Both the position numbers and the translations under genes were made by a program. Positions 2-15,260 of a stretch of 15,291 nucleotides of DNA are shown here, piece by piece; position 1 is the first letter of the stretch, and every line of letters begins with the position of its first letter. This stretch comes from Candidatus Omnitrophota bacterium (GTDB lineage: Bacteria > Omnitrophota > Gorgyraeia > JABMRG01 > JAFGKX01), in assembly GCA_020354945.1 (NCBI GenBank), contig CP070655.1, positions 257,465 through 272,755 on the forward strand, read 5' to 3'. The notes beneath the pieces are model-generated. The model saw only the letters and a program-made list of their open reading frames with translations, did no database searches and had not been told where the DNA came from.

Positions 2-1546
2 TATTTTGGAAGCGTTGATTATTTAGCTACCTATGGGGTTTCTGTTTATCCATTTGGCTATTTTCCGGTTATTTCTTGTGTTCTAATTTTAGCATACGCA
101 ATAGTAAACTACCGCCTCATGGATATAGAGGTTATCATACGAGAGACGGCAGTGTTTGCGGGGATATTTGGATTTGCGGTGGGGACATTTGTGGTGGTTA
201 TGCATGTAGGGCAGACACTGCTGGAGCCGTATATAAGGGAAAGTCATCCTTTGCTTTTTCCCGCAGTAGCATTATTTTTGGTGACAATAGCGGTGCGCCC
301 GATTGAGAAGCTTACCTATAATACAATAGGCAAACTCTTATTTAAAAAGAGGCAAAAATACCAAAAGGCCTTAAAAGATGCGGCAGTGGGTATGGCTACA
401 ATTCGAAAACCAGACAGGTTATTAGGCCTTATCACTTACATATTAAGTAAAAGCTTAAGGCCTACCAATGCTGCTGTATATATTTTTGATGATGAAGAAA
501 AATCCTACTCTCTTAGAGCAGCAAGATACCCCAGCAAGATTGATCAAAAAATAGAATTTTCAAGTGAAGAAGCAATAGTTACCTGGTTAAAGGAAAATAG
601 ACAACCCATTGTCCTTGAGGAGATAGAGCACTTCTTAAGAGAGGAACAGTTACGCCCACACAAGGAAGTGCTTGCCTCTGATTTAGAACAAATAAAGCGG
701 AGATTATTATCTCTAAATGCAACCGTATGCATACCGAGCTTTTATCATGAAGATGAACTCTTAGGTATTTTGGTATTGGGAGATAAAAAAAGCGGCGACC
801 TATACACCCAGGATGATTTAGAACTATTAAATTCATTAGCAGATGAGGCAGCCTTTGCCATACGAAACTCCATGCTTTATAGAAAACTTCAGAAAAAAGC
901 AGATGAAATATCCAAGATTTATGGAAAAGAACAAACCATGTTTGCACACGCTGCTACTGCTTTTGCCAATGCAATCGATGCCAGAGATCCATATACCCAC
1001 GGCCATTCCCAAAGAGTAACAGGTTACTGTCTGGCTTTAGCAGACCAGATGGAAGAGGCCAGATTCGGCGGCAAAGAAAGGTATAAGTGGCTTAAACAAA
1101 GATTACGTTTAGCCGCTCTCTTACACGATATAGGTAAAGTTGCAATTCCGGATAACATATTGCAAAAAAAAGGAAAGCTTAATGCCGAGGAATACAAGAA
1201 GATGAAAGAACACCCTGTTATCGGCGCTAAGGTATTAGGTTATGTAAGGGGCTTCTGGGATATTGTCTCCGCTGTAAGGCATCACCATGAAAGATATGAC
1301 GGAGGAGGCTATCCTGACGGCCTTAAAGCGGAAAGCATTCCTTTTATGTCAAGGGTAATGGCGGTGGCTGATACATTTGACGCAATGACGTCTAATAGGC
1401 CTTACCGAAAAACGATGACTGCAGAGGTAACAAAGCAGGAAATAAATAATAATTCAACCATCCAATTCGACCCTTATGTGGTAGGGGCCTTTATGAAAGC
1501 ATATGCAAAGAACCTGATTAAAAAGATTATGGGGCAAAACCGATAA
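2..1546 (+). CDS. Membrane-anchored GAF + HD-GYP c-di-GMP phosphodiesterase, 5'-partial (true start lies upstream of the window)
   Basis: The frame of ORF 119..1546 is open back to position 2 (YFGSVDYLATYGVSVYPFGYFPVISCVLILAYAIVNYRL-MDI, the typical end of a HisKA_7TM-like sensor). TM helices and a GAF (LLGILVLGDKKSGDLYTQDDLELL) follow. The HD-GYP motifs are intact: DPYTHGH, LHDIGK, HPVIG, HHERYDGGGYP, VADTFDAM, RPYRK. Confidence 0.9.
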   Translation, partial: YFGSVDYLATYGVSVYPFGYFPVISCVLILAYAIVNYRLMDIEVIIRETAVFAGIFGFAVGTFVVVMHVGQTLLEPYIRESHPLLFPAVALFLVTIAVRPIEKLTYNTIGKLLFKKRQKYQKALKDAAVGMATIRKPDRLLGLITYILSKSLRPTNAAVYIFDDEEKSYSLRAARYPSKIDQKIEFSSEEAIVTWLKENRQPIVLEEIEHFLREEQLRPHKEVLASDLEQIKRRLLSLNATVCIPSFYHEDELLGILVLGDKKSGDLYTQDDLELLNSLADEAAFAIRNSMLYRKLQKKADEISKIYGKEQTMFAHAATAFANAIDARDPYTHGHSQRVTGYCLALADQMEEARFGGKERYKWLKQRLRLAALLHDIGKVAIPDNILQKKGKLNAEEYKKMKEHPVIGAKVLGYVRGFWDIVSAVRHHHERYDGGGYPDGLKAESIPFMSRVMAVADTFDAMTSNRPYRKTMTAEVTKQEINNNSTIQFDPYVVGAFMKAYAKNLIKKIMGQNR

Positions 1547-3657
1547 TGCGAGAAGCCTATGCAATATCTTCATTGCTTACTATACTCATAACCCTGTTTT
1601 TAGGAAGCTTAATATATTTTCGCGGCAGGGGAGGCAGGATAGTCAAGTCTTATTTTCTGCTAATGCCCTTTGTCGCTTTATGGGCATTTGGAGTTTATAA
1701 TACGCTTAACGCTTCAACTGCCGGGCGGGCTTTATTATGGGCGAAATTATTTTTTGTTTCAGCCGCATTTATACCAATTTTTTATTTTAGATTTGTTATA
1801 AAATTGTTAGCAGCTGAGAGAAGATACAGATTTTTATTATGGCTGGGTTATTTTATATCTGTTTGTTTTGCTCTTTCAGTATTAGGACCATTTATGTTTG
1901 AAGGCACAAATTTGAAATTTGATATTTACTGGCCCAAGGCAGGCAATCTTTACTGGTTATACATTGTTTATTTTTTGTCATATCCTGTTCTTGCGCATAC
2001 GATCGCTTTTGCCAATCGCGGCGAAATTACAATTTTAGCAAAAAAGCAGTTAATGTATGTATCAATTGCCGCCGTTTTAGGTTTTGGGGGAGGCACATCT
2101 ACATTTTTGCCCCTATATGGCGTTTTTATACCAAGATTGGAATCAATGGCCATATTTTTAATACCATCTGCCTGCGCATTTATAGCAGTTGCTACTTATA
2201 CTGCAAGATTGATGGATACCGAACTTTTTAAAAGAAGAGCAGTTATATTTTCATTACTTTATGGTTTGTCCGTTGGTATATTTGTTAGCATTGTGTTTAT
2301 TGTGCAGAATATTGTTGATTTTCGGCAGGGCCTTAGTAGATTCTTCATACCTGTAGCAGCGCTTTTTATCATAACTATTTTTATAAGGCCTATCGAACAT
2401 ATCCTTACCCGCTGGACAGATAAATTTTTGTATCAGAAAAAATACAGTTATCAAAAAGTACTGGAAGACGCCGGAAAAGGAATGCTTTTTATAACCAATG
2501 TAGATAGATTGCTTAAACTTACTGTTAGAATACTTTCAAAACATATGAGGGTTACCAATACTGCAATCTATCTTTACGATAAGGACACCGGCACTTATAG
2601 GTGCAGGACAACTGGCAGGGAAAAAATAGAAATCAAAGGGGAAATAAAATCAACCAACGCGTTAATAGAATGGTTAAAAGAGAAAAAGGCCCCGCTTTTA
2701 ATAGACGATATAATAAATTGGGTTCAGAAGGAGGCAATGTTCCCGCACAGGATAGTATTAAAGAGAACCCTTGAGCAATTGAGGATAACTATGCGTTCTT
2801 TAAAAGCGGCTTTGTGCATTCCGGCATTTATAAGAGGGCAGATGATAGGCTTTTTGGTGCTGGGTAATAAACTTTCAGGTGCCGGTTATACCAGAGACGA
2901 TATTGCCCTTCTTGGCACTTTATCCAATTCTGCGGCAATTGCTGTTGAGAATGCCCGTATGTATGAAGAATTGCATAACAGGATAAAAAGAGTAGCAGAT
3001 TTATACAAGGGTCAACATGAGTTATTTATAGATACCGCAACAGCATTTTCATACGCTGTGGATTTAAGGGATACTTATAGCCACCAGCACGCCCAAAGGA
3101 TTATAGAATATTGCATGATTATTATTAAAGGTTTGGATAAAATGAATGCCGGATATAGCAAAGAACCGGATTTTCTGGAAAATTTAAAGATAGCTGCCCT
3201 GCTTCATGATGTGGGAAGAGTAGCTATACCCGATTCTATATTAAATAAGAAAGGCCCGCTTGCACATAAAGAACGCGAAGCGGTAAAGAAACACGTAGAC
3301 ATTGCGGTGGATGTCTTAAAACCGATAAAGGAATTAGAGCCAGTTATCAATATCATAAGATGCCACCACGAGTTTTATAATGGAGGAGGTTATCCGGAAG
3401 GCATAAAAGGTGACGAGATTCCTTTTGCCTCCCGCATACTCGCCGCAGCCAATGCATATGATGCTATGACGTCTGAGAGGCCTTATCGAAAAGCAATGAC
3501 TCATCAGAAGGCAGCAGAGCGGCTTAAGCAAGGTTCGGGTAAAGATTTTGACCCTTTAATTGTAGAGGGATTACTGGTCGGATTTGAAGGTATCGGCCCC
3601 GCAAGGAGTGGAGAGATCAGAACCCCCAGGGGAGAAGTTCCTCCGGTGCTGTATTAA
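1546..3657 (+). CDS. Multi-TM (HisKA_7TM-like) sensor + GAF + HD-GYP domain protein, possibly catalytically degenerate
   Basis: 703 aa ORF whose ATG overlaps the upstream stop (TAATG at 1544-1548). It has a hydrophobic N-terminal ~280 aa, a GAF (MIGFLVLGNKLSGAGYTRDDIALL) and HD-GYP motifs LHDVGR, HHEFYNGGGYP, AANAYDAM, RPYRK. It is clearly paralogous to the upstream gene. Confidence 0.9.
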   Translation: MREAYAISSLLTILITLFLGSLIYFRGRGGRIVKSYFLLMPFVALWAFGVYNTLNASTAGRALLWAKLFFVSAAFIPIFYFRFVIKLLAAERRYRFLLWLGYFISVCFALSVLGPFMFEGTNLKFDIYWPKAGNLYWLYIVYFLSYPVLAHTIAFANRGEITILAKKQLMYVSIAAVLGFGGGTSTFLPLYGVFIPRLESMAIFLIPSACAFIAVATYTARLMDTELFKRRAVIFSLLYGLSVGIFVSIVFIVQNIVDFRQGLSRFFIPVAALFIITIFIRPIEHILTRWTDKFLYQKKYSYQKVLEDAGKGMLFITNVDRLLKLTVRILSKHMRVTNTAIYLYDKDTGTYRCRTTGREKIEIKGEIKSTNALIEWLKEKKAPLLIDDIINWVQKEAMFPHRIVLKRTLEQLRITMRSLKAALCIPAFIRGQMIGFLVLGNKLSGAGYTRDDIALLGTLSNSAAIAVENARMYEELHNRIKRVADLYKGQHELFIDTATAFSYAVDLRDTYSHQHAQRIIEYCMIIIKGLDKMNAGYSKEPDFLENLKIAALLHDVGRVAIPDSILNKKGPLAHKEREAVKKHVDIAVDVLKPIKELEPVINIIRCHHEFYNGGGYPEGIKGDEIPFASRILAAANAYDAMTSERPYRKAMTHQKAAERLKQGSGKDFDPLIVEGLLVGFEGIGPARSGEIRTPRGEVPPVLY

Positions 3658-4337: not shown

Positions 4338-4682
4338 ATGAAAAGGGCAAGGAAACACAAAAGGACAAGGAGAAGAATTTACACGGGCACGTTTGTAATT
4401 ATGTGTGCGTTTTTGCTGACCTTTGCCAGTATATGTTATGCAGAATCGTATGCATGGCATAGGTTTGCCAGAGGCTTTAAAAACTGCGCGAGCGGCTGGA
4501 TGGAATTTCCAGCGAATATCTATGAGACATCTAAGGAATATAACCCGTTTGCGGGAATTACCTATGGTTCAGTAAAAGGGGCCTTAAAGACAGCTCACAG
4601 AACAGGCATAGGCGTATACGATGTTGGAGCATTCTTTGTCCCCGAAAAGAAACCACCCATAGAGCCGGAAGCATTATTTTAA
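4338..4682 (+). CDS. Exosortase system-associated protein, TIGR04073-like (secreted/membrane)
   Basis: Basic N-terminus, hydrophobic signal peptide ending CYA-ES. The pattern RFARGFKNCASGWMEFPANI...GITYG..KG....RTGIGVYDV.AF.VP...PIEPE matches the family as recalled. Confidence 0.7.
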   Translation: MKRARKHKRTRRRIYTGTFVIMCAFLLTFASICYAESYAWHRFARGFKNCASGWMEFPANIYETSKEYNPFAGITYGSVKGALKTAHRTGIGVYDVGAFFVPEKKPPIEPEALF

Positions 4683-4706
4683 GTAAACAATCAGTAATTT
4701 ATATGG

Positions 4707-4744
4707 ATAAAAAGGAGGGTTTTTAACCCTCTTTTTTATTTTTT
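4707..4744 (+). terminator. Rho-independent terminator (possibly bidirectional)
   Basis: AAAAAG-GAGGGTT-ttt-AACCCTC-TTTTTT, just downstream of the 4682 stop. Confidence 0.8.
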
Positions 4745-4747
4745 GGC

Positions 4748-4776
4748 TTGACATGATGCTGTTACTATTGTAGGAT
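4748..4776 (+). promoter_or_regulatory. Sigma70-type promoter of the fabG operon
   Basis: Perfect TTGACA (4748-4753), 17-bp spacer, TAGGAT (4771-4776), right after the terminator. Confidence 0.75.
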
Positions 4777-4854: not shown

Positions 4855-5595
4855 ATGCAGTTAAAAGAAAAGACAGCTATGATAACAGGCGCGGCTCAGG
4901 GAATAGGCAAGGAGATAGCCCTCACTTTAGCCAGGGAAGGCGCCAATTTAGCTATCTGCGACGTAAATAAAGATGGTATAACCGAAACCCAAAAAGAGAT
5001 AGAATCTGCCGGCGTTAAGGTTTTAAGCTTTGTTGTTGATGTAACAGATGCCAAACAGGTCGAAGATATGGTCAACAAAGTCCTTGACAACCTCGGCAAA
5101 GTTGATATACTTGTCAATAACGCCGGAATAACCAGAGATTCTTTGATACTGAGGATGAAGGAGGCTGACTGGGACGCTGTCTTAGCGGTCAATTTAAAAG
5201 GGGCCTTCAATTGCATAAAGGCAGTTGCAAGGCCTATGGTAAAACAGCATTCAGGCAAAATAGTCAATATTGCTTCCATAATCGGCATAATGGGCAATCC
5301 GGGCCAGGCCAATTATGCAACCAGTAAAGCGGGTATAATAGGGCTGACTAAAACCGCGGCCAAAGAATTAGCATCAAGAGGTATTAATGTTAATGCCATT
5401 GCCCCAGGTTTTATAAAGACAACTATGACAGATAACTTGACTGAGGAGCAGAAACAGAAGATGTTTGGGGCAATTCCGTTAGCCAAATTCGGCGAAACAA
5501 AAGATGTGGCTAATTTGGTCCTATTTTTGGCCAGCGAGGCTTCCTCATATATAACCGGGGAAGTAATTAAGATTGACGGTGGAATGGCAATGTAA
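4855..5595 (+). CDS. fabG: 3-oxoacyl-[ACP] reductase
   Basis: SDR motifs [21 protein letters not shown] and a GGMAM C-terminus; adjacent to acpP and fabF. Confidence 0.95.
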
Positions 5596-5647
5596 ACCCC
5601 CACGCCAATTAGCACTTCGACATTTTTTATATAATTGGTGTGGGGGT
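5596..5647. repeat. 16-bp inverted repeat (long stem-loop) directly after the fabG stop
   Basis: ACCCCCACGCCAATTA (5596-5611) and TAATTGGTGTGGGGGT (5632-5647), one G.U pair, 20-nt loop, no U-tract. Confidence 0.85.
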
Positions 5648-5657
5648 AAATAATAAC

Positions 5658-5680
5658 CCCCGCTTTTTAAAAAGATGGGG
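5658..5680. repeat. Second short hairpin just upstream of the acpP RBS
   Basis: CCCCG-CTTTTT-AAAAAG-A-TGGGG, an imperfect palindrome. Confidence 0.5.
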
Positions 5681-5699
5681 CATTTTAAGGAGGGAAAGA

Positions 5700-5948
5700 A
5701 TGGCAACAGGAGATAAAATAAAGTCGATTATTGCAGAACAATTAGGAGTGAAACCGGAAGAGGTAACCCCGGAAGCATCATTTATTGACGACCTTGGCGC
5801 AGACTCATTAGACACGGTCGAGCTGGTAATGGCATTAGAGGAAGAATTTGGAATAGAGATACCGGATGAAGATGCCGAGAAGATGACCAAGGTGGCTGAC
5901 GCCATTAAATACATAGAAGAAAAAGTAGCAGCTAAAGGTTCAAGCTAA
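5700..5948 (+). CDS. acpP: Acyl carrier protein (82 aa)
   Basis: AAGGAGG at 5687-5693, ATG at 5700; [20 protein letters not shown] carries the phosphopantetheine Ser. Confidence 0.97.
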
Positions 5949-5979
5949 TTCCACCCACCCAATTTCCCACCAATATATA

Positions 5980-7218
5980 ATGGAAAAAAGAAGGATAGTC
6001 ATTACAGGCATAGGCGTTGTTACACCTGTAGGCAGCGGTAAGCGGGCATTCTGGGAAGCTGTTTGTCATGGTAAAAATGGTATTCATAAAATAAGCAGCT
6101 TTGATGCAACAGATTTTACATCTCAGATAGCCGGTGAGGTGAAAGATTTCGACCCAGCCGAATTCTTATCAGCAAAAGACATAAAAAGGACAGATAGATT
6201 TGTCCAGTTTGCCATGGTAGCCTCAAGGTATGCTGTCAAAGATTCAAATCTTAAGCTCGATTCTGTAGATAAGAACCGCCTTGGTGTATTAATAGGCTCC
6301 GGCATTGGTGGCATGAAGACAATAGAAAGGGAGCATAAGATTTTGTTAAAAAAAGGGCCTTCTCGGATGTCGCCCTTTTTTATACCAATGCTTATAGTAA
6401 ATATGGCATCTGCTAAAGTTTCAATGGATTTAGGATTAAAAGGTCCCAATACCTGCGTTGCAACTGCATGCGCTACCGGAACGCATGCTATAGGAGACGC
6501 TTTTAAGATAATACAACGTAATGATGCTGACTTTATGCTTTGCGGAGGCACAGAGGCTGCTGTTGCACCATTAGGCCTTGGCGGGTTTTGTGCTGCTCGT
6601 TCTCTTTCCACAAGAAATAATGAACCGGAGAAGGCCTCAAGGCCGTTTGACAAAGAAAGAAACGGTTTTGTAATGAGTGAAGGTGCAGGTGTAGTTATTT
6701 TAGAAGAATACGAACATGCCAAAGCTAGAGGCGCACACATGTATGCGGAGATAATAGGCTATGCGATGAGCGGCGATGCATATCATATGACTGCGCCTGA
6801 CCCTGAAGGGATGGGAGCGGTTTCATGTATGAAAAAGTGCTTAGAAGACGCAGGACTAAAACCGCAACAAGTTGATTATATTAATGCCCATGGCACTTCT
6901 ACTCAGCTTAATGATAAGATAGAAACTAAGGCCATCAAGGATGTTTTTGGCAAGCACGCTTATAAATTGGCTGTGAGTTCCACAAAGTCTATGATAGGCC
7001 ATATGTTAGGAGCAGCAGGCGGAGTAGAATGCGCTGCCACTGCTCTGGCTGTCGATAACGGAATTTTACCGCCTACCACAAATTACGAAGTTCCTGATCC
7101 TGAATGCGACCTTGATTATGTCCCCAATAAAGCAAGAAAAGCCAATATTAATGTAGCCTTATCTAATAGCTTGGGTTTCGGCGGACATAACTGCACCATC
7201 GCTTTAAGAAAGATATAA
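5980..7218 (+). CDS. fabF: 3-oxoacyl-[ACP] synthase II
   Basis: Cys-His-His triad ([21 protein letters not shown]), SRPFD, and NSLGFGGHN. Confidence 0.95.
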
Positions 7219-7222
7219 ATTA

Positions 7223-7288
7223 TAGTTCGTAGTTGGTAGTCCGTAGTCCGTAGACTACGAACTCATAACACATAACTACAAACTACCA
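7223..7288. repeat. Inverted heptamer tandem array 1
   Basis: TAGTTCG TAGTTGG TAGTCCG TAGTCCG TAG, followed directly by complementary-sense units ACTACGA ACTCATA ACACATA ACTACAA ACTACCA. Confidence 0.85.
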
Positions 7289-7306
7289 GAATAAAGGAGC
7301 GCAATA

Positions 7307-8461
7307 ATGGACTATCTACTTACAGAAGAACAGGTAATGGTACGAGACTTAGCCCGCCAGATTGCCGAAGAGAAGATTGCTCCTGTTGCTACCCAATATG
7401 ACGAAAGCGGTGAATTTCCCTGGGATATAATAAAGGTAATTGCCGAAAGCGATCTTTTTGGGATTTTTGTGGAAGAAAAATATGGTGGAACCGGCGGCGG
7501 AGTAACGGAATTATGTTTAGCAACCGAAGAGTTTTCAAAGGCCTGCGGCGGCATTGCTGTTTGCTATGCAGCCAGCGCATTAGGGGCATATCCTATAATA
7601 TTATATGGCAGCGAAGAGCAAAAACAGAAATATCTGCCCGATATAGCTCGTGGTAAAAAACTGGCAGCATTTGCATTGACAGAAGCAGGGGCAGGAAGCG
7701 ATGCAGGAGCAGTTGCTACTACTGCGAAAAAAAACGGAGATTTCTTTATTTTGAACGGCACCAAACAGTGGATTACAAATGGCGGAGAAGCTGAAATTTA
7801 TACTGTAATAGCAGTTACTGATAAGACCAGGGGGTCTCGTGGCGCAAGCGCTTTTTTAGTTGAGAAAGGCACCCCCGGTTTTGAATTTGGCAAGAAAGAA
7901 AATAAGATGGGTATTAGAGGCTCTACGACAAGAGAGCTTATATTTAATGATTGCAAAATTCCCAAGAAGAATCTTTTAGCTAAGGAAGGATTTGGATTTA
8001 TAATAGCCATGAAGACATTTGACAAGTCCCGTCCCGGAATTGGAGCACAGGCAGTGGGCATTGCTCAAGGGGCGTTGGACCACGCTGTAAAATATGCTAA
8101 AGAAAGAATCCAATTTGGTAAGCCAATTTCAAGTTTTCAAGGGATACAATTTATGTTAGCTGATATGGCTACCCAGGTTGAGGCCGCCAGGACTTTGGTT
8201 TATTCTGCTGCAAGATATATTGACTCCGGAGCGAAAGATATATCCAAAATTTCAGCCCAGGCAAAACTCTTTGCATCCGATGTATGTATGAAGGTTACTA
8301 CTGATGCTGTGCAAATTTTTGGCGGATATGGTTATATGAAAGAGTATCCGGTTGAAAAATATATGCGCGATGCAAAGATAACCCAGATTTACGAAGGCAC
8401 AAACCAGATTCAACGCAGCATCATCGCCTCCGAACTCATTAAAGAATCTCTGAAGAAATAA
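7307..8461 (+). CDS. Acyl-CoA dehydrogenase (butyryl-CoA dehydrogenase/CarC-like)
   Basis: FALTEAGAGSD, LNGTKQWITNG, QFGKPI..FQ, GGYGY, and catalytic Glu in IYEGTNQIQ. RBS AAGGAG at 7294-7299. Confidence 0.93.
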   Translation: MDYLLTEEQVMVRDLARQIAEEKIAPVATQYDESGEFPWDIIKVIAESDLFGIFVEEKYGGTGGGVTELCLATEEFSKACGGIAVCYAASALGAYPIILYGSEEQKQKYLPDIARGKKLAAFALTEAGAGSDAGAVATTAKKNGDFFILNGTKQWITNGGEAEIYTVIAVTDKTRGSRGASAFLVEKGTPGFEFGKKENKMGIRGSTTRELIFNDCKIPKKNLLAKEGFGFIIAMKTFDKSRPGIGAQAVGIAQGALDHAVKYAKERIQFGKPISSFQGIQFMLADMATQVEAARTLVYSAARYIDSGAKDISKISAQAKLFASDVCMKVTTDAVQIFGGYGYMKEYPVEKYMRDAKITQIYEGTNQIQRSIIASELIKESLKK

Positions 8462-8464
8462 ACG

Positions 8465-8535
8465 TAAGTTATAAGCTATAAGTTTTTTTGTTGCGCTTTA
8501 AGCTTACAGCTTACAACTTAAAACTTACAACTAAC
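8465..8535. repeat. Inverted heptamer tandem array 2
   Basis: TAAGTTA TAAGCTA TAAGTTT, a 15-nt spacer, then AGCTTAC AGCTTAC AACTTAA AACTTAC AACTAAC running up to the etfB ATG. Confidence 0.85.
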
Positions 8536-8537
8536 CC

Positions 8538-9329
8538 ATGGACATAATCGTCTGCATAAAACAAGTTCCTGATACGACTGACATAAAAATTGATCCTGCC
8601 ACCAATACCCTTATCCGCGAGGGAGTAGAATCTATTATAAATCCATTTGATATGTACGCAATAGAAGAAGCGATACGCACAAAGGGGAAACTCGGCGGTA
8701 AGGTAACGGTCGTATCTATGGGGCCTCCACAGGTTGATACGGCCCTTCGTGAAGCAATATCACTTGGATGTGATGAGGCAGTATTGCTTACAGACAAGGC
8801 CTTTGCAGGAAGCGATACATTAGCAACAAGTTATACCCTGGCTGTGGCAATAAAAAAGATCGGCTCATATGATGTAATCTTCTGTGGCAAACAGGCTGCA
8901 GATGGCGATACCGCTCAAGTAGGGCCCGGGATATCTGCCCATTTAGATATACCTCAGGTTACGTATGTTAAAAAGATAGAACAGATACAGAATGGTTTTG
9001 CCAGAGTGGAGCGTATGACCGAAGAAGGATATGAGGTTATAGAAACACCTCTGCCGGCCCTTTTTACAGTTGTTAAAGAGATAAATGAACCTCGCCTGCC
9101 TTCATTAAGAGGCAAGATAGCTGCGAAAAAGACAAAAATTACTACATGGAATGCCAAAGATTTAGTGGTAGATGAGAAACATATAGGCCTTAATGGTTCC
9201 CCCACACAAGTGATTAAGATTTTTGCCCCTCCACCACGAGCAGCAGGAGAGATATTTCATGGCGATACAGAAGAGGTTGTTTTAAAATTAGTTGAGCGTA
9301 TTAAAGATGAGTTAAAACCTAAGTTTTGA
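8538..9329 (+). CDS. etfB: Electron transfer flavoprotein beta subunit (bifurcating type)
   Basis: IVCIKQVPDT, INPFD..AIEEA, FAGSDTLATS, GKQAADGDTAQVGP, NEPRLPS, GLNGSPTQV. Confidence 0.95.
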   Translation: MDIIVCIKQVPDTTDIKIDPATNTLIREGVESIINPFDMYAIEEAIRTKGKLGGKVTVVSMGPPQVDTALREAISLGCDEAVLLTDKAFAGSDTLATSYTLAVAIKKIGSYDVIFCGKQAADGDTAQVGPGISAHLDIPQVTYVKKIEQIQNGFARVERMTEEGYEVIETPLPALFTVVKEINEPRLPSLRGKIAAKKTKITTWNAKDLVVDEKHIGLNGSPTQVIKIFAPPPRAAGEIFHGDTEEVVLKLVERIKDELKPKF

Positions 9330-9345
9330 ATATAGAGAGCTGTTA

Positions 9346-10194
9346 ATGAACTCGAGAGAACGCATCAAAACAATATTCGCGCATAAAACACCGGACAGAA
9401 TGGGCATTTTTGATTTTTTCAATGAGCTCACAATAATTAACTGGAAGAAACAGGGCCTTTTGCCAGATATAGAGCCTGTTGAATATTTTGATTTTGATTT
9501 AGATTTTAGAACTAAAGATTCTGCAAAGGACAAGTTTACATTGTTTTGTTTTAATGGGCCGTTCCAGCAGATGGTATCTACGAAAAACCTGCAGCAGTCT
9601 TTAATAGATTTTACTCGAGAGCCCAGGCACACAAAAGATTTTTTAAAAAGCAGCTTAAATAATATTTTTTCTGAATATAAAAGACAAAAAGAAAAAAGCC
9701 TGCCTGCAGGCAGACAGGGCCATAGGTTTTGTGGCGTCTGGATTTGGGAAGACATAGCCTATGATAACGGCCTTTATTTTTCTATTGAAAAATATAGAAA
9801 ACAACTCTTTGATTTTCATAAGGAGATAAGCTCCTACTTCCAAAATGAAGGGCTTTACGTTGTATTTCACTGCGACGGGAACATTGAACAACTAATACCT
9901 TTTTTGGCAAAGTCGAAATTCTGCGGAATACACCCTTTGCAAGAATTGAGCAATCCCAATATTATCCGAATTAAGAAGGATTTAAAAGGCGAAATAACAT
10001 TTCTGGGCGGAATAGGATTAAACCATCTAAAAGGCCTGCATCAGGATATTTTAGACAGAATAGAGGAACTTAAAGAAGCCGGCGATTATATATTTTGTTT
10101 TGACGGGCCAATACCGCAGGATACAGAATTTAAAACATACCGGAATATATTGGCAAGAATAGAGGCAAACGGGGCCTATAAAGAAAGTTCGTAG
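9346..10194 (+). CDS. Uroporphyrinogen decarboxylase / MtaA-CmuA-like TIM-barrel family protein, short and divergent
   Basis: MNSRERI...HKTPDR N-terminus, GPF, WEDIAY, VFHCDGNI, IHPLQ, ITFLGGI and GDYIF are motifs typical of the URO-D-like superfamily. It is 282 aa, shorter than the usual ~340-360. Confidence 0.7.
   Translation: MNSRERIKTIFAHKTPDRMGIFDFFNELTIINWKKQGLLPDIEPVEYFDFDLDFRTKDSAKDKFTLFCFNGPFQQMVSTKNLQQSLIDFTREPRHTKDFLKSSLNNIFSEYKRQKEKSLPAGRQGHRFCGVWIWEDIAYDNGLYFSIEKYRKQLFDFHKEISSYFQNEGLYVVFHCDGNIEQLIPFLAKSKFCGIHPLQELSNPNIIRIKKDLKGEITFLGGIGLNHLKGLHQDILDRIEELKEAGDYIFCFDGPIPQDTEFKTYRNILARIEANGAYKESS
9699..9718. repeat. 20-bp GC-rich palindromic element (LPAGRQ type) in-frame inside the CDS
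   Basis: CCTGCCTGC-AG-GCAGACAGG, 9-bp arms with one mismatch, in an otherwise very AT-rich gene. Confidence 0.75.
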
Positions 10195-10242
10195 TTGGTA
10201 TTTCGTAGTTGGTAGAAAGAATCTACAAACGACAAACTGACA
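10185..10242. repeat. Inverted heptamer tandem array 3
   Basis: AAGTTCG TAGTTGG TATTTCG TAGTTGG TAG ... TCTACAA ACGACAA ACTGACA. AGTTCGTAGTTGGTA (10186-10200) is identical to 7224-7238. Confidence 0.8.
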
Positions 10243-10263
10243 TGGATATGGCGAAGGTTATAA

Positions 10264-11457
10264 ATGACCGGAATTGAAGTAATTGCAGAGAAATGCGTCG
10301 GATGTAAACTCTGTATCAAAGCCTGCCCTTACAGTGCTATTTATATGAAGGGCAAACTTGCAGTTATTGATATGGCAAAATGCACACTCTGCGGCGCATG
10401 TGTAGATGCTTGTAAATTTGACGCCATTATATTACGCAAAGAAGAAGAACCACAAAAAGATATATCTGAATATAAAGGTGTGTGTATTGTCGCTGAACAA
10501 AAAAAAGGCGTTATCCAGCCTGTTACATATGAACTCTTAGGAAAAGGGAAAGAACTGGCAGATAGGCTTGATGTGCAGCTATCTTCCATATTAATTGGCG
10601 AAAATATGAAAGATAAAACAGACGAACTTATACACCGCGGCGCTGACAGGATATATCTGGTAGATTCTCCAAAGTTAGCCCATTATCAGGATGAGCCATA
10701 TACAAAAATTATAATAGAGCTGATAAAAGAATATAAACCGGAGATTGTACTATGCGGCGCAACTTCGACAGGGCGTTCTTTAATTTCCAGAGTTGCGGTT
10801 AGATTAAAAACAGGGCTGACCGCAGATTGCACCGGTTTAGATATAGATGAAGAAAAGCGCCTTCTGCTTCAGAACCGCCCTGCTTTTGGCGGAAATATTA
10901 TGGCTACGATAATGTGCCCGAACCACAGGCCACAAATGGCTACGGTAAGGCACAAGGTTATGAAAGAGGCGGAAGTTGACACCAGAAGAAAAGGCGAGGT
11001 AATAAAGAAAGATTATTCTGATAAGCTGCTCCAATCGAGGACGAAAACAGTAGATGTGGTTGAGGAAGAGAAAGAAAAAGTAAATCTTTCCGAAGCCGAT
11101 TTTATTGTATCAGGCGGAAGGGGCTTGGGTTGCCCTGAGAATTTTTCCGTTATACAGGAATTGGCAGATACCCTTGGCGCTGCTGTAGGCGCATCCCGCG
11201 CAGCAGTCGATGCCAGCTGGATTTCCTATTCACATCAAGTTGGCCAAACTGGAAAGACAGTCTGTCCAAAGATCTATATTGCTTGTGGAATATCCGGCCA
11301 GATTCAGCATTTAGCCGGGATGTCCTCATCGGATATTATTATAGCGATAAATAAAGATGCAGACGCCCCTATATTTAAGGTAGCAACCTATGGAATAGTC
11401 GGGGATTTATTCCAAATAGTGCCCGCTTTAGTTAAAAAAATAAAAGAACTCACCTAA
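10264..11457 (+). CDS. etfA: Electron transfer flavoprotein alpha subunit with N-terminal 2x[4Fe-4S] ferredoxin domain (CarE-like)
   Basis: CVGCKLCIKACP and CTLCGACVDAC; GLTADC, RPAFGGNIMATI, SGGRG, QVGQTGKTV, GISGQIQH, AINKD. Confidence 0.95.
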   Translation: MTGIEVIAEKCVGCKLCIKACPYSAIYMKGKLAVIDMAKCTLCGACVDACKFDAIILRKEEEPQKDISEYKGVCIVAEQKKGVIQPVTYELLGKGKELADRLDVQLSSILIGENMKDKTDELIHRGADRIYLVDSPKLAHYQDEPYTKIIIELIKEYKPEIVLCGATSTGRSLISRVAVRLKTGLTADCTGLDIDEEKRLLLQNRPAFGGNIMATIMCPNHRPQMATVRHKVMKEAEVDTRRKGEVIKKDYSDKLLQSRTKTVDVVEEEKEKVNLSEADFIVSGGRGLGCPENFSVIQELADTLGAAVGASRAAVDASWISYSHQVGQTGKTVCPKIYIACGISGQIQHLAGMSSSDIIIAINKDADAPIFKVATYGIVGDLFQIVPALVKKIKELT

Positions 11458-11624: not shown

Positions 11625-14600
11625 ATGTATTTCAAGAAGTTAGAGCTTTTTGGATTTAAATCTTTTGCCAACAGGACCAGGCTTGTATTTGAACCAGGCA
11701 TTACAGCAGTAGTAGGCCCGAATGGCGTAGGGAAAAGTAATATTGCTGACGCAATCAAATGGGTGCTGGGCGAGCAATCTGCCAAAGAGTTGCGTGGCGG
11801 AAAGATGGAAGATGTCATTTTCAACGGAACCGATACCACCCAGCCAGTCAATATCGCAGAAGTATCATTAATCCTTTCCAATGAAGATAGGAACCTGCCG
11901 ATCGAATATGATGAAATTATTGTAACCCGCCGCGTTTTTCGCTCCGGAGAAAGTGAATACCTGCTTAACAAGACCCAGGTTAGACTAAAAGATATTCAGG
12001 ATTTATTTTTGGGTACAGGTATCGGCACTAACTCATATTCTATTAGCGAACAGGGTAAGATGCAGAAGGTTCTTGATGCCAGGCCCGAGGATAGACGGGG
12101 AATTTTTGAAGAGGCCAGCGGAATAACAAAATATAAAACAAAGAAAAAAGAGGCGTTGAGGAAGCTCGAACATACCGAAAACAATCTTATCAGATTGGCA
12201 GATATAATAAATGAGGCAAAAAGGCAAATAAGTTCGATAGAACGGCAGGCAAAAAAGGCTCAAAAATATCAGCAGGAGTTTGATTGCTTAAAAGAGTTAG
12301 ACACAAAACTATCGTTGCATAAATATAAAAATATAATAGAGCAAAGGGATGCAAAGGATAAAGAGTGCCAACAGTTAAAACACAAACAGAATGTAAATTC
12401 TTGCAAGCTGAATGCCCATACGCAAGGCCTTCGTAATCAAAGAAGGGAATTGACAACTCTGGAGCAGACCCTTTCAGATGCTAGAAACCGCCTTATGAAC
12501 ACCGTAGCTGCCATTGATAAAAATGCCTCTAAAGCGTCATTAAATGAAGAAAGGGTTAAAGAGATTACCTCGCGGCGCACTTCTTTAACTGCGGAAATAG
12601 AACATATGGAAGGCAGAACAGAGTCTCTTAACCAAAAGATAAACCAGATGCAGCAGGCCCTGGATGAATTTGGAAAGCGAAACGACGAGAAGCAAAATGT
12701 AGTCCGGCAGAGACAAAAAAGATTAGAAAAGATTGCATCCGCAACTAAAGAATGCGAGGTCATTATATCCCAGAGTAAGATAGATATAATGGATAATATG
12801 GCTAAACAGTCTAAGGCTAAAAACGAGCTCGCAAAGGTTTCAGCCAATGCCGCATCTTTAAGCCACAGACACAGAAGATTAGCAGCTGAGAAAGAGGCTA
12901 CCTGTAGTCAAATTTCTACATACACCGATAAATTTAAACAGTCAGAATCGGCGTTAAAAAAACAGGTTGAAAAAACAAAGGCCCACCGCGCACAGTTAAA
13001 ACAGTCCCAGGAAAATTTGCAATCGCTTAACAAAGAACATTCTTTGTTAAGCGAATCTATTGCCTCATTTGAGAAGTCGTTGGCGTGTTGTGCTTCCAAA
13101 CTCGAGATTCTTACAAACTTAACCGAGAAGAAAGAAGGTTTACCGGAGGGCGTTAAGGCTTATCTTGAAATGCTGAATGAATCCAAAGAGGCAAAAGATT
13201 CCTTCACTGGCATACTGGCTGATATCATTAAGATAAAACCAGGATATGAAAGGGCCATAGAGGCAGCCATTGGAGATGAACTCAAATCCATTGTGCTGAA
13301 GGACGAGGATGCAGCAATGAAAGCTGTAGATTATCTGGTAAATCAACAGAAAGGAAAAGCCTCATTTATTATTTTAGATAGATGTTCTCAGCATAAGAGA
13401 AGATTCAGTTTCGGCACTGCTCAACCGGCACAGGGGCTTGAGCAGATTATTGATATTGAAGAAGCCCATCAAGGGTTAATCTCTTATTTATTCGATGGTA
13501 TATTTTTTGCTAAAAATATAGAAGAGGCCTTTTCTATTATTAAAAAAAGCAGAGATAGGAATATAAAAGTGGTTACCAAAGATGGCAGCAGTGTTTCTTA
13601 CAACAAAATTGTCGGAGGGGGGCTCGGTTCGCAGGAATATACAGGCATTGCAGGAAGAAGGTTCAGAATAGGACGGTTATCTAAAGAGGTTGACGGCTTT
13701 AAGGGCAAAATTGGGCAGGCTGAACAAAGACGCGAAAGTTTAGTTAAACAGATAAATTCCTGCCAAAAAGATTCAGAATCGAAAGACGCAGTTTTAAGGG
13801 AAGAAGAAAAAATATTAGCTCGAAAGGAAACTGATAAATCCGGATTAGAAGCGGAACTTAAAAAATTAGAAGAAGAATTTAATCTTGTCCGGATGGAATT
13901 AGGCGAGATGTCGCAGCAACGGGAGGAACTTAAAAATACAGAAAACTCCCTCAAAGAGGAGTTAAATAGCTTTGAATCTGAACGCCAAAATTTGCAGGAT
14001 ATTATATCGGCGAAAGAAAAGGCCATAGCATCAAACGCCTCAGAAAAAGATAGCCTGCTAATAAGCTTTACCGAAGCCAAGACCGAGTTATCTTTGCTTT
14101 CCGAGAAATATGCTTCGCAAGAGAATACCCTTAATATGCTAAAGGACTCATTAGATAAGGATGAGCTTAACTTACAGAATAGAAAATCCCAGATAAAAGA
14201 AGGTGAAGAAAGGGTAGAATATTTAAATAGCGAGACACAAAGAATAACTCAGGAGAATGAAATTTTAGAGCAGCAGAAGGGACAATTAAATGGCAAAGTT
14301 GCAGAGTTAGAAAAGATGCGCTACTCAGTAGCCGCAGAGCTTGAAAAAATAGAAGAAGAAACTCAAACCAAACAAAAGGAAATAGATGAATTAAAGAATA
14401 ATACATCTGCTTTGCATATAAATATTACAGAATTAAATTACGAGGCTACCGGTATAAAAGAAAGAATCCGTCAGGCGTATAAGGCAGACCTTGATGAAAC
14501 AGATATAACTTTTACTGAAGATGAAGATTGGGAAAAGGTTGCTCAACAAGTAGAAGAGCTCAAGCTGAAAATTGAAAAGATGGGCCCGGTCAATTTAGTC

Positions 14601-15260
14601 GCTATTGAAGAACACAAAGAGCTACAGGAAAGGTATGATTTTTTGACTTCACAACAGCAGGATTTATTAGATGCCAAGGAATCACTGCACAAGGCAATAA
14701 ATAGAATAAATCGCACCACCCGCAAATTATTTATCGAAACTTTCGAAAAGATAAAGGCCTATTTTAAGGAGTATTTCAGGTTGCTTTTTGGCGGCGGCAC
14801 TGCGGATATATATTTAATAGACCAGGCAGATATATTAGAAAGCGGAATTGAGATAATAGTACGCCCTCCAGGCAAGAAACTTCAGAGCATATCACTTCTT
14901 TCCGGAGGGGAAAAGGCATTGACTTCGATAGCCCTGCTTTTTGCATTATTTAAGGTAAAACCCAGCCCATTTTGTATTTTAGATGAGATAGATGCACCTC
15001 TCGATGAAGCGAATATAGACCGCTTCAGCAGGATATTACAGGAGTTTATTAGTGCATCCCAGTTTATTATGATCACCCACAACAAAAAGACCATATCTAT
15101 CGCTGATGTTATGTACGGCATAACCATGGAAAAAAGCGGTATATCCAAGATTGTTTCCGTTAAATTCGCCCAGGAAGAGATTGATAGGAAGGAAAAAGCA
15201 GCAGAGCGGAAGCAAAAAAAAGTCGTGCCAGGCACGACTTTTAAGAAAGTTCGTTCCTAA
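11625..15260 (+). CDS. smc: Chromosome segregation protein SMC
   Basis: FGFKSF, Walker A GPNGVGKSN, long coiled coils around a hinge, GPVNL, signature LSGGEK, Walker B/D-loop ILDEIDAPLD, ITH; 1211 aa. Confidence 0.97.
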   Translation: MYFKKLELFGFKSFANRTRLVFEPGITAVVGPNGVGKSNIADAIKWVLGEQSAKELRGGKMEDVIFNGTDTTQPVNIAEVSLILSNEDRNLPIEYDEIIVTRRVFRSGESEYLLNKTQVRLKDIQDLFLGTGIGTNSYSISEQGKMQKVLDARPEDRRGIFEEASGITKYKTKKKEALRKLEHTENNLIRLADIINEAKRQISSIERQAKKAQKYQQEFDCLKELDTKLSLHKYKNIIEQRDAKDKECQQLKHKQNVNSCKLNAHTQGLRNQRRELTTLEQTLSDARNRLMNTVAAIDKNASKASLNEERVKEITSRRTSLTAEIEHMEGRTESLNQKINQMQQALDEFGKRNDEKQNVVRQRQKRLEKIASATKECEVIISQSKIDIMDNMAKQSKAKNELAKVSANAASLSHRHRRLAAEKEATCSQISTYTDKFKQSESALKKQVEKTKAHRAQLKQSQENLQSLNKEHSLLSESIASFEKSLACCASKLEILTNLTEKKEGLPEGVKAYLEMLNESKEAKDSFTGILADIIKIKPGYERAIEAAIGDELKSIVLKDEDAAMKAVDYLVNQQKGKASFIILDRCSQHKRRFSFGTAQPAQGLEQIIDIEEAHQGLISYLFDGIFFAKNIEEAFSIIKKSRDRNIKVVTKDGSSVSYNKIVGGGLGSQEYTGIAGRRFRIGRLSKEVDGFKGKIGQAEQRRESLVKQINSCQKDSESKDAVLREEEKILARKETDKSGLEAELKKLEEEFNLVRMELGEMSQQREELKNTENSLKEELNSFESERQNLQDIISAKEKAIASNASEKDSLLISFTEAKTELSLLSEKYASQENTLNMLKDSLDKDELNLQNRKSQIKEGEERVEYLNSETQRITQENEILEQQKGQLNGKVAELEKMRYSVAAELEKIEEETQTKQKEIDELKNNTSALHINITELNYEATGIKERIRQAYKADLDETDITFTEDEDWEKVAQQVEELKLKIEKMGPVNLVAIEEHKELQERYDFLTSQQQDLLDAKESLHKAINRINRTTRKLFIETFEKIKAYFKEYFRLLFGGGTADIYLIDQADILESGIEIIVRPPGKKLQSISLLSGGEKALTSIALLFALFKVKPSPFCILDEIDAPLDEANIDRFSRILQEFISASQFIMITHNKKTISIADVMYGITMEKSGISKIVSVKFAQEEIDRKEKAAERKQKKVVPGTTFKKVRS
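15218..15242. repeat. REP-like palindrome copy 2, inside the smc 3' end
   Basis: AAAAGTCGTGCC-A-GGCACGACTTTT with perfect 12-bp arms; translated within KKVVPGTTFKK. Confidence 0.9.

Follow-up and report, generated by a model that had tools for sequence, protein, structure and literature searches.

A Bcd-like flavoprotein with a ferredoxin-domain electron-transfer flavoprotein as candidate enoyl-ACP reductase of Omnitrophota

Which enzyme carries out the enoyl reduction of type II fatty-acid synthesis (FAS-II) in a bacterium whose fatty-acid genes are accompanied by none of the usual reductases? The question is raised by a 15,291-base stretch of DNA (the window; assembly GCA_020354945.1), which makes up an entire contig of a metagenome-assembled genome (MAG) of the phylum Omnitrophota, labelled G000. 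In it, FAS-II genes are followed on the same strand by genes for an acyl-CoA dehydrogenase (ACAD) related to butyryl-CoA dehydrogenase (Bcd) and for two subunits of an electron-transfer flavoprotein, EtfB and EtfA. Among the variable steps of bacterial fatty-acid synthesis, the one catalysed by enoyl-acyl carrier protein (ACP) reductase (ENR) has been studied best; it is a target for drugs, and four classes of the enzyme are known. Comparison of this locus with other genomes leads us to propose that the ACAD-EtfAB module is probably the missing ENR of FAS-II and, more tentatively, that it is at the same time electron-bifurcating. The initial annotation knew of no described FAS-II variant of this kind, and full-text searches, which left subscription journals and supplements outside, found no paper proposing an ACAD-Etf complex as enoyl-ACP reductase.

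The fab-ACAD-etf cluster and the type of its flavoproteins

Open reading frames together with Pfam and NCBIfam searches place fabG-acpP-fabF-ACAD-etfB-X-etfA on the + strand at 4855-11457, in the order given by the initial annotation, with intergenic gaps of 104, 31, 88, 76, 16 and 69 bp from fabG to etfA. The genes are as follows.

4855-5595, + strand: fabG, 3-oxoacyl-ACP reductase (TIGR01830, 340.9 bits, cut-off 297.75)
5700-5948, + strand: acpP, housekeeping acyl carrier protein (TIGR00517, 117 bits, cut-off 70.45)
5980-7218, + strand: fabF, beta-ketoacyl-ACP synthase II (TIGR03150, 657.2 bits, cut-off 493.75)
7307-8461, + strand: Bcd-like ACAD flavoprotein, candidate catalytic subunit of the ENR (PF02771, PF02770, PF00441)
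8538-9329, + strand: etfB, small Etf subunit (PF01012)
9346-10194, + strand: X, 282 aa (no match in Pfam or NCBIfam)
10264-11457, + strand: etfA, large Etf subunit (two Fer4 stretches at residues 4-55, then PF01012 and PF00766)
about 10264-10460, + strand: N-terminal 2x[4Fe-4S] ferredoxin domain of EtfA (Fer4 pair)

The same searches bear out the earlier statement that the window holds no ENR, thiolase, crotonase or hbd. The start of acpP is ATG 5700 rather than GTG 5640 and is preceded by an AAGGAGG ribosome-binding site; the DSL motif of its product (D35-S36-L37, with Ser36) is invariant in the ortholog alignment.

The catalytic candidate has the three domains of the ACAD superfamily, N-terminal alpha, middle beta and C-terminal alpha (124 bits for PF02771, 97.3 for PF02770 and 181.1 for PF00441). 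It carries IYEGTNQ at residues 361-367, a segment whose Y362, E363 and G364 do not vary among 48 orthologs, and we take the glutamate of this YEG motif to be the catalytic base, as in enzymes of the medium-chain acyl-CoA dehydrogenase and Bcd type. Its nearest solved structures are the Bcds of C. difficile (5OL2_C, 428 bits) and A. fermentans (4L1F, 419 bits). No NCBIfam model reaches its cut-off on it, the top one being AcrC (479.7 bits versus 640); AcrABC models are likewise the top, sub-cut-off matches of the other two subunits (248.9 versus 475 and 367 versus 600). ACADs that act on carrier proteins are found among its matches, namely the prolyl-carrier-protein dehydrogenases RedW and PigA (~251 bits), MbtN (82 bits) and 4IRN, and the fold therefore has a precedent for carrier-bound substrates. 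The module has no likeness to FabI/FabL, FabK or FabV. A predicted complex of two ACAD chains with FAD and ACP obtained scores of 0.13 and 0.11, for a mark of 0.32, which counts neither for nor against ACP docking.

The Etf subunits bear on the possible mode of action. EtfB contains the motif GKQAADGDTAQVGP, which includes DGDTAQVG, and EtfA contains RPAFGG(N); in alignments with CarD and CarE, DGDTAQVG and RPAFGGN are identical or nearly so. These motifs mark bifurcating Etfs, in which a second FAD site stands in place of AMP. The nearest solved relative of EtfA is CarE (6FAH_A, 459 bits over residues 3-394, the ferredoxin domain included), and that of EtfB is CarD (6FAH_B, 254 bits). The five top solved matches of each subunit score 226-459 bits (6FAH, 7KOE, 5OL2, 4KPU, 7QH2) and belong to CarDE, the EtfABs of C. 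difficile and A. fermentans, LctBC and 7KOE, all five of them bifurcating systems, whereas the human and Paracoccus housekeeping Etfs score just 87-167 bits. The motifs and the fused 2x[4Fe-4S] domain reported initially are thus all present, and by sequence this EtfAB appears to be of the bifurcating CarDE/Bcd type.

Reductase genes in the host genome, its class and other lineages

Is the ENR step really vacant in the host? The G000 assembly (1,137,816 bases) is made up of 130 pieces with 100-N spacers between them; its completeness of 89.22% (contamination 1.62%) bounds every absence reported for it here. Apart from the enoyl reduction, FAS-II is complete: plsX-fabH-fabD lie on another contig, which ends just past fabD, two matches to the carboxyltransferase of acetyl-CoA carboxylase are found, and the sole FabZ domain is fused to LpxC (G000:C1:174244-175620; NF009667, 465.8 bits, cut-off 465), with lpxA adjoining. 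As FabH is present, the reduction of a primer acyl-CoA, considered initially as an alternative role, is unnecessary. ACAD, EtfA, EtfB, FabF and FabG are each encoded once. PF13561, which detects FabI, FabL and FabG, has a single match in G000, namely fabG, the sole short-chain dehydrogenase/reductase (SDR) found. Both matches to the nitronate monooxygenase (NMO) family, to which a FabK would belong, are a GuaB3-like protein and PyrD, and the FabV models PF12242 and NF010177 have no match. The searches for crotonase and thiolase in G000 found neither, so the context of a Bcd butyrate pathway is missing. A canonical ENR together with a full acyl-CoA pathway would have spoken against the proposed function; neither was found in G000 or in the ACAD-bearing relatives. 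In most of 40 same-class relatives the FabZ match is the same LpxC fusion of ~440-460 aa.

Among these 40 relatives, 34 have an ortholog of the ACAD that is 66-93% identical (two are cut at contig ends), and such conservation across a class of 1-2 Mb genomes suggests a housekeeping role. The synteny of fabF, ACAD and etf genes is kept: in the 30 class loci extracted with 1.5-kb flanks, fabF lies directly 5' of the ACAD gene in 20, and EtfB is encoded 3' of it in most. A pair of loci with identical ACAD sequences, L026 and L079, shows that flanks this short lead to an undercount of the fab linkage. Crotonase and thiolase occur together in 7/40 relatives, five of which are among the six without an ACAD ortholog. 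The two ACAD-bearing genomes with both enzymes (2/34) are G030, where a distinct ACAD paralog of 639 aa adjoins them, and G035, where they share a contig of their own; ACAD paralogs of 620-640 aa occur in G023, G028, G030 and G039. As to the six genomes that lack the ACAD, FabI (334-355 bits on FabI models) is encoded directly 3' of fabF in G023 and G038, a FabL-like SDR directly 3' of fabF in G026, and FabL-like SDRs in G028 and G039, while in G020 the FabI/FabL-type searches found no ENR. All nine same-class FabI genomes examined have the order plsX-fabH-fabD-(fabG)-acpP-fabF-fabI, and this fabI slot directly after fabF is the position that ACAD-etfBA takes in the window. We also considered extra SDRs as hidden FabI or FabL. 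From roughly 35 extra matches in ACAD-bearing relatives, leaving out those above ~215 bits (FabG-paralog-like) and below ~135 bits, 14 mid-scoring proteins were tested and rejected, as each is closest to FabG, apart from a tie in L179 (114 versus 113 bits).

The alternation extends to the phylum. In 151 Omnitrophota genomes, G000 included, the ACAD ortholog (E <= 1e-120) is present in 67, FabI (E <= 1e-40) in 42 and a FabL-type SDR (254-321 bits) in 50, with two further partial ones. FabI or a FabL-type SDR accompanies the ACAD in none of 67 genomes and is present in 66 of the 84 that lack it, which is the anticorrelation that the initial annotation had asked for (Fisher p 2e-26, uncorrected for kinship). 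We prefer to base the argument on the family-level picture, in which each family is either of the ACAD type or of the FabI type. A close EtfB ortholog is found in 65/67 ACAD genomes and 0/84 others; the ACAD and Etf module is co-inherited. The EtfB-like regions of ACAD-less genomes are just 36-50% identical, and many lie within open frames of 580-700 aa, which suggests fused Etf proteins of another type; in family f38, for example (G076:C11:4358-5152), identity is 36-39%. In all five FabI genomes of other classes that were examined, fabI does not adjoin a full fab cluster; at one such locus (L205) distant fabG- and fabF-like genes lie ~2.6 kb from it. FabL-type SDR genes of family f38 (L209-L216; G046:C16, G122:C1) were noticed a few kb from paired divergent ketosynthase (KS) genes and a divergent ACP gene, sets that may form a second, specialised lipid cluster resembling fatty-acid or polyketide synthases.

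FabK was another candidate for a hidden ENR. No match exceeds the NCBIfam TIGR03151 cut-off in 41 relatives, the 151 phylum genomes or five genomes of other phyla, and we rejected it for most genomes. The NMO-like protein of the same-genus genome G001 is much closer to H. pylori FabX (7E1Q, 249 bits) than to FabK (116 bits). All five NMO-like proteins that were inspected, from G001, G041, G042, G043 and G044, have a four-cysteine cluster, in a different arrangement in G041. In FabX, a dehydrogenase/isomerase, this cluster binds [4Fe-4S] in place of the NAD(P)H motif of FabK (PMC8626469). FabX-like four-cysteine proteins occur in 15/67 ACAD genomes and 0/84 others, which suggests that they and the ACAD-Etf module belong to a shared anaerobic toolkit of fatty-acid synthesis. 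The FabX-like gene of G001 (L072:1596-2759) lies just 5' of the HD-GYP gene that matches the start of the G000 contig, so G000 may have such a gene in an unassembled part. In a Margulisiibacteriota MAG, a FabX-like gene (L088:13197-14171) lies within the fab cluster itself.

Is the association with fab genes peculiar to Omnitrophota? Of 600 stretches matched in a wider scan, 598 encode an ACAD relative; the best 80 loci of other lineages were taken from it and brought the neighbour counts to 110 loci in total. In 29 of the 80, fab genes are within reach of the ACAD gene, each time on the same strand. The order plsX-fabH-ACAD-etfB-etfA-fabD-fabG-acpP-fabF is found in Nitrospirota (L087, L097, L098) and Margulisiibacteriota (L088), plsX-fabH-ACAD-etfB-etfA-fabG-acpP-fabF in Desulfobulbia and other 'delta' MAGs (L105, L110, L126, L133, L135), and fabF-ACAD or fabH-ACAD in KSB1, Spirochaetia, Acidobacteriota and others. 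The synteny thus recurs in rearranged form, in varied gene orders across at least seven named phyla. Genes of the crt/hbd/thl type are neighbours of the ACAD at 4/110 loci, all below 60% identity, and at none of the clade loci at >=60%. In a tree of 104 ACAD sequences, all 48 fab-linked ones fall in one clade of 90 rows (SH-aLRT 99), and the ACAD of the window lies in a clade of 37 Omnitrophota rows (SH-aLRT 98). The five genomes of other phyla have no FabI match above 170 bits and no FabV match, the latter in a search without positive control; four of the five have an NMO-like match (E <= 1e-27), with the cysteine cluster in all four.

Proposed mechanism and competing explanations

A FAS-II pathway complete but for its ENR, the missing CoA pathway, the linkage to fab genes, the alternation with FabI and FabL-type SDRs, the shared slot after fabF and the co-inheritance of ACAD and Etf together lead us to read the module as an enoyl-ACP reductase. 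In this genome and in its relatives it appears likely to have replaced FabI/FabL by non-orthologous displacement. Given the Etf type and the ferredoxin domain, bifurcation, judged by homology to CarDE and Bcd-Etf alone, would be its likeliest mode of action; that ACP is the carrier, that the reaction runs in the reductive direction and that it bifurcates electrons are what we infer from these comparisons. FabZ, fused to LpxC, would make the trans-2-enoyl-ACP, whose double bond would be reduced by the flavin of the ACAD. The electrons would be supplied by NADH via the two FADs of the CarDE/Bcd-type Etf: of each NADH pair, one electron would take a downhill route to the ACAD and enoyl-ACP and its partner an uphill route, through the 2x[4Fe-4S] domain of EtfA, to ferredoxin. 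Every elongation cycle would then yield reduced ferredoxin.

It should be noted that a number of points weigh against this proposal. Its support is comparative throughout. G000 is only 89% complete and in 130 pieces; its FabV negative is weak, because the control genomes gave no match either, and it has one zinc-dependent alcohol dehydrogenase of the medium-chain dehydrogenase/reductase family (ADH_zinc_N, Tdh-like, 193.8 bits), a potential reductase. The ACAD looks like an ordinary Bcd relative, roughly 55-60% identical to both Bcds over the aligned stretch as estimated by eye, and no ACP-specific feature was identified in it, the helix-E segment being among the parts compared. As to distribution, the Fisher p overstates the case, because related genomes are not independent. 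In 18 of the 84 genomes without the ACAD, both FabI and FabL-type SDRs are missing, which leaves room for further, unrecognised ENRs. The FabL-type genes of family f38 are mostly near second KS/ACP sets and therefore may not be housekeeping ENRs. NMO proteins that are closer to FabK (283 and 267 bits) are encoded in the ACAD genomes G029 and G168. A Desulfobulbus MAG, from outside the phylum, combines ACAD-etfBA within the fab cluster with a FabL (350.8 bits, cut-off 328) and a FabI-like SDR of 167 bits, and the exclusivity of ACAD and ENR is therefore not universal; two ENRs within one genome are common among bacteria. For bifurcation in particular, neither Rnf nor an [FeFe] hydrogenase was found in G000 as a ferredoxin sink, and AcrABC of C. 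propionicum, the top NCBIfam match, is an ACAD-Etf complex that is not known to bifurcate.

The last two points would suit a module that is an ENR without bifurcation. Its Etf would then pass both electrons of NADH to the ACAD, and the ferredoxin domain of EtfA would act only as a relay or as an alternative point where electrons, for instance those of reduced ferredoxin, come in. Everything that the genome comparisons say in favour of an ENR fits this equally, and the genome would need no Rnf or hydrogenase to spend extra reduced ferredoxin. On the side of the bifurcating proposal, ferredoxin-linked proteins do occur in G000: PorD, small 2x[4Fe-4S] proteins, one of them of 71 aa, and ShyB/AsrA-like and HycF/NuoI-like subunits. 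We regard this explanation as unlikely, as all three AcrABC matches stay under their cut-offs while EtfA and EtfB are nearest to CarE and CarD, with a full ferredoxin domain and the motifs shared with CarDE intact. A more radical departure would be that the ACAD-Etf is a CoA-level enzyme, similar to Bcd, Car or Acr or an acyl-CoA dehydrogenase, with the true ENR unrecognised and the fab linkage due to genome compaction alone. Bona fide Bcds as nearest solved relatives, the ACAD without recognisable ACP-specific traits and the 18 genomes hinting at other ENRs all agree with it, as do about half of the clade loci, which show no fab neighbour within the flanks examined. It is also favoured by an Aas-like AMP-binding protein in G000 (877 aa, an AMP-binding/ACP fusion at G000:C1:343150-345783), which resembles long-chain acyl ligases and could load exogenous fatty acids. 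We nevertheless consider a CoA-level role quite improbable: crotonase and thiolase are not found in G000 and occur together in just 2/34 ACAD-bearing relatives, the ACAD is conserved throughout a class of small genomes, its fab linkage recurs in varied orders across phyla, fabI holds the same slot in 9/9 genomes, and the overlap with FabI/FabL-type enzymes is 0/67.

A reversal of the reaction would be still harder to accommodate. In that case the ACAD would oxidise acyl-ACP, as FabX, MbtN and TcsD do, with the Etf as electron acceptor, and would deliver 2-enoyl-ACP for unsaturated or modified lipids. RedW, PigA, MbtN and 4IRN among the matches are in keeping with this, and a fab context suits any ACP-dependent enzyme. 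Yet the ENR step would be left empty in 67 genomes, many ACAD genomes already have a FabX-like four-cysteine dehydrogenase/isomerase, and the Etf belongs with the NADH-oxidising CarDE/Bcd Etfs rather than with the housekeeping acceptors. Such an oxidative role is, in our opinion, very improbable.

Relation to known systems and surrounding features

The enzyme proposed here, an enoyl-ACP reductase coupled to a bifurcating Etf, combines traits of several known systems. With clostridial Bcd-EtfAB (5OL2; 4L1F, 4KPU) it shares an ACAD-fold catalytic subunit with the YEG glutamate (E363), the same type of Etf (5OL2_A/B and 4KPU are in the top five) and, as proposed, an NADH-driven reduction of a trans-2-enoyl thioester. 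It differs in its partners, which are fabG, acpP and fabF rather than crt, hbd and thl, in the additional ferredoxin domain of EtfA, and presumably in its carrier, ACP, with chains from C4 to C16-18; the Bcds (5OL2, 4L1F) are also longer by one residue where they align with residues 88-91 of the ACAD. Like CarCDE of A. woodii (6FAH), it has an EtfA with N-terminal 2x[4Fe-4S] domain, aligned over residues 3-394, and a CarD-like EtfB. CarC also matches the ACAD (354.6 bits) but ranks 13 among solved ACADs; the substrate would be different, and no caffeate-pathway context is present here. AcrABC of C. propionicum, an acryloyl-CoA reductase, is likewise an ACAD with EtfAB and the top NCBIfam match; the scores stay below the curated cut-offs, and the locus has no lactate or acrylate pathway context.

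With FabI, FabL, FabK and FabV the module would share its role in the pathway and, in same-class relatives, the fabI slot. In contrast to FabI/FabL (SDRs), FabK (an FMN-dependent TIM barrel) and FabV, it has an unrelated fold and three subunits, and its cofactors would be FAD, an Etf with two FADs and Fe-S clusters, with coupling to ferredoxin proposed. A flavin- and Etf-based ENR would be a new class. A Bcd-like ACAD with a bifurcating, ferredoxin-domain EtfAB might therefore make up a fifth structural class of ENR, housekeeping in many anaerobes, a suggestion that we offer tentatively. Its hosts could possibly be most Omnitrophota and lineages of Nitrospirota, Desulfobulbia, Margulisiibacteriota, Spirochaetota, KSB1 and Acidobacteriota. 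A functional parallel is FabX of H. pylori (7E1Q), an FMN/[4Fe-4S] flavoenzyme of FAS-II that acts on the acyl/enoyl-ACP couple (PMC8626469). Unlike the module, FabX is an NMO-family protein; it acts oxidatively, in the making of unsaturated fatty acids, and H. pylori has it alongside FabI.

If the ENR assignment is right, it would explain the 'missing ENR' of a whole phylum and of members of several others, and would correct the annotation of genes that are now called acyl-CoA dehydrogenase and read as signs of degradation or butyrate fermentation in MAGs. If the enzyme also bifurcates, anabolism would be tied to energy conservation in energy-starved anaerobes: part of the large free-energy drop of enoyl reduction would be kept as reduced ferredoxin, with less lost as heat.

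Protein X, encoded between etfB and etfA, does not belong to a known sequence family, a possibility that we tried and rejected. It has no Pfam match at E <= 0.1, PF01208 (uroporphyrinogen decarboxylase) included, and none in NCBIfam, and a profile search against solved chains gave nothing below E 0.15. It has 18 homologs, and the two with a named source are both Omnitrophota hypothetical proteins. Likeness to a known protein is confined to the fold: its AF2 model (pLDDT 79.1, pTM 0.81) retrieves uroporphyrinogen decarboxylase 1J93 as top Foldseek hit (E 7.9e-8, TM 0.58-0.68, 9-14% identity), which points to a shortened TIM barrel of the UroD/MtaA type. As X is encoded in 6/30 class loci and most orthologous clusters are without it, we consider it a lineage-specific insertion between the etf genes, a passenger or accessory outside the core module.

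The remaining features of the window are the signals around the cluster and the genes on both sides of it.

2-1546, + strand: GAF/HD-GYP protein 1, cut by the contig end (GAF and HD-GYP, HD_5)
1546-3657, + strand: GAF/HD-GYP protein 2 (GAF and HD_5, with an N-terminal seven-transmembrane region, HisKA_7TM)
4338-4682, + strand: small exosortase-system-associated protein (TIGR04073, 67.8 bits, cut-off 50), directly 5' of the fab promoter region
4705-4741, + strand: terminator-like hairpin of the gene 5' of fabG (from the sequence)
4748-4776, + strand: promoter-like site TTGACA-17-TAGGAT, 5' of fabG (10/12 consensus match)
5640-5663, + strand: terminator-like or attenuator-like hairpin in the fabG-acpP gap (8 pairs, 6 of them G-C, then TTTTT)
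11625-15260, + strand: smc

The initial annotation placed the cluster behind a single clear promoter with no canonical terminator. The promoter-like site exists as one match to the consensus, at 10/12 positions; a stronger match (11/12) sits within fabG, and a scan of the window gave 29 sites versus 20.6 +/- 4.8 in shuffled sequences, an enrichment that is not clear. The second half of the statement does not hold, given the hairpin at 5640-5663. Since the promoter is a mere consensus match and this hairpin lies between fabG and acpP, we infer the co-transcription of the genes from fabG to etfA and put it no more strongly. The fabF-ACAD spacer (7219-7306) was also seen to contain an inverted repeat of 10 bp, AGTTCGTAGT ... 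ACTACGAACT, which is not followed by a T-run.

Very long frames with enoyl reductase-, SDR- or crotonase-like domains occur in some of these small Omnitrophota genomes (2886 aa in G004:C4, 8517 aa in G028:C5 and 34487 aa in G028:C2) and are probably similar to polyketide synthases or polyunsaturated fatty-acid synthases. The tandem GAF and HD-GYP proteins at the start of the window are likely cyclic di-GMP phosphodiesterases, and the pair is kept at 84-89% identity in G001.

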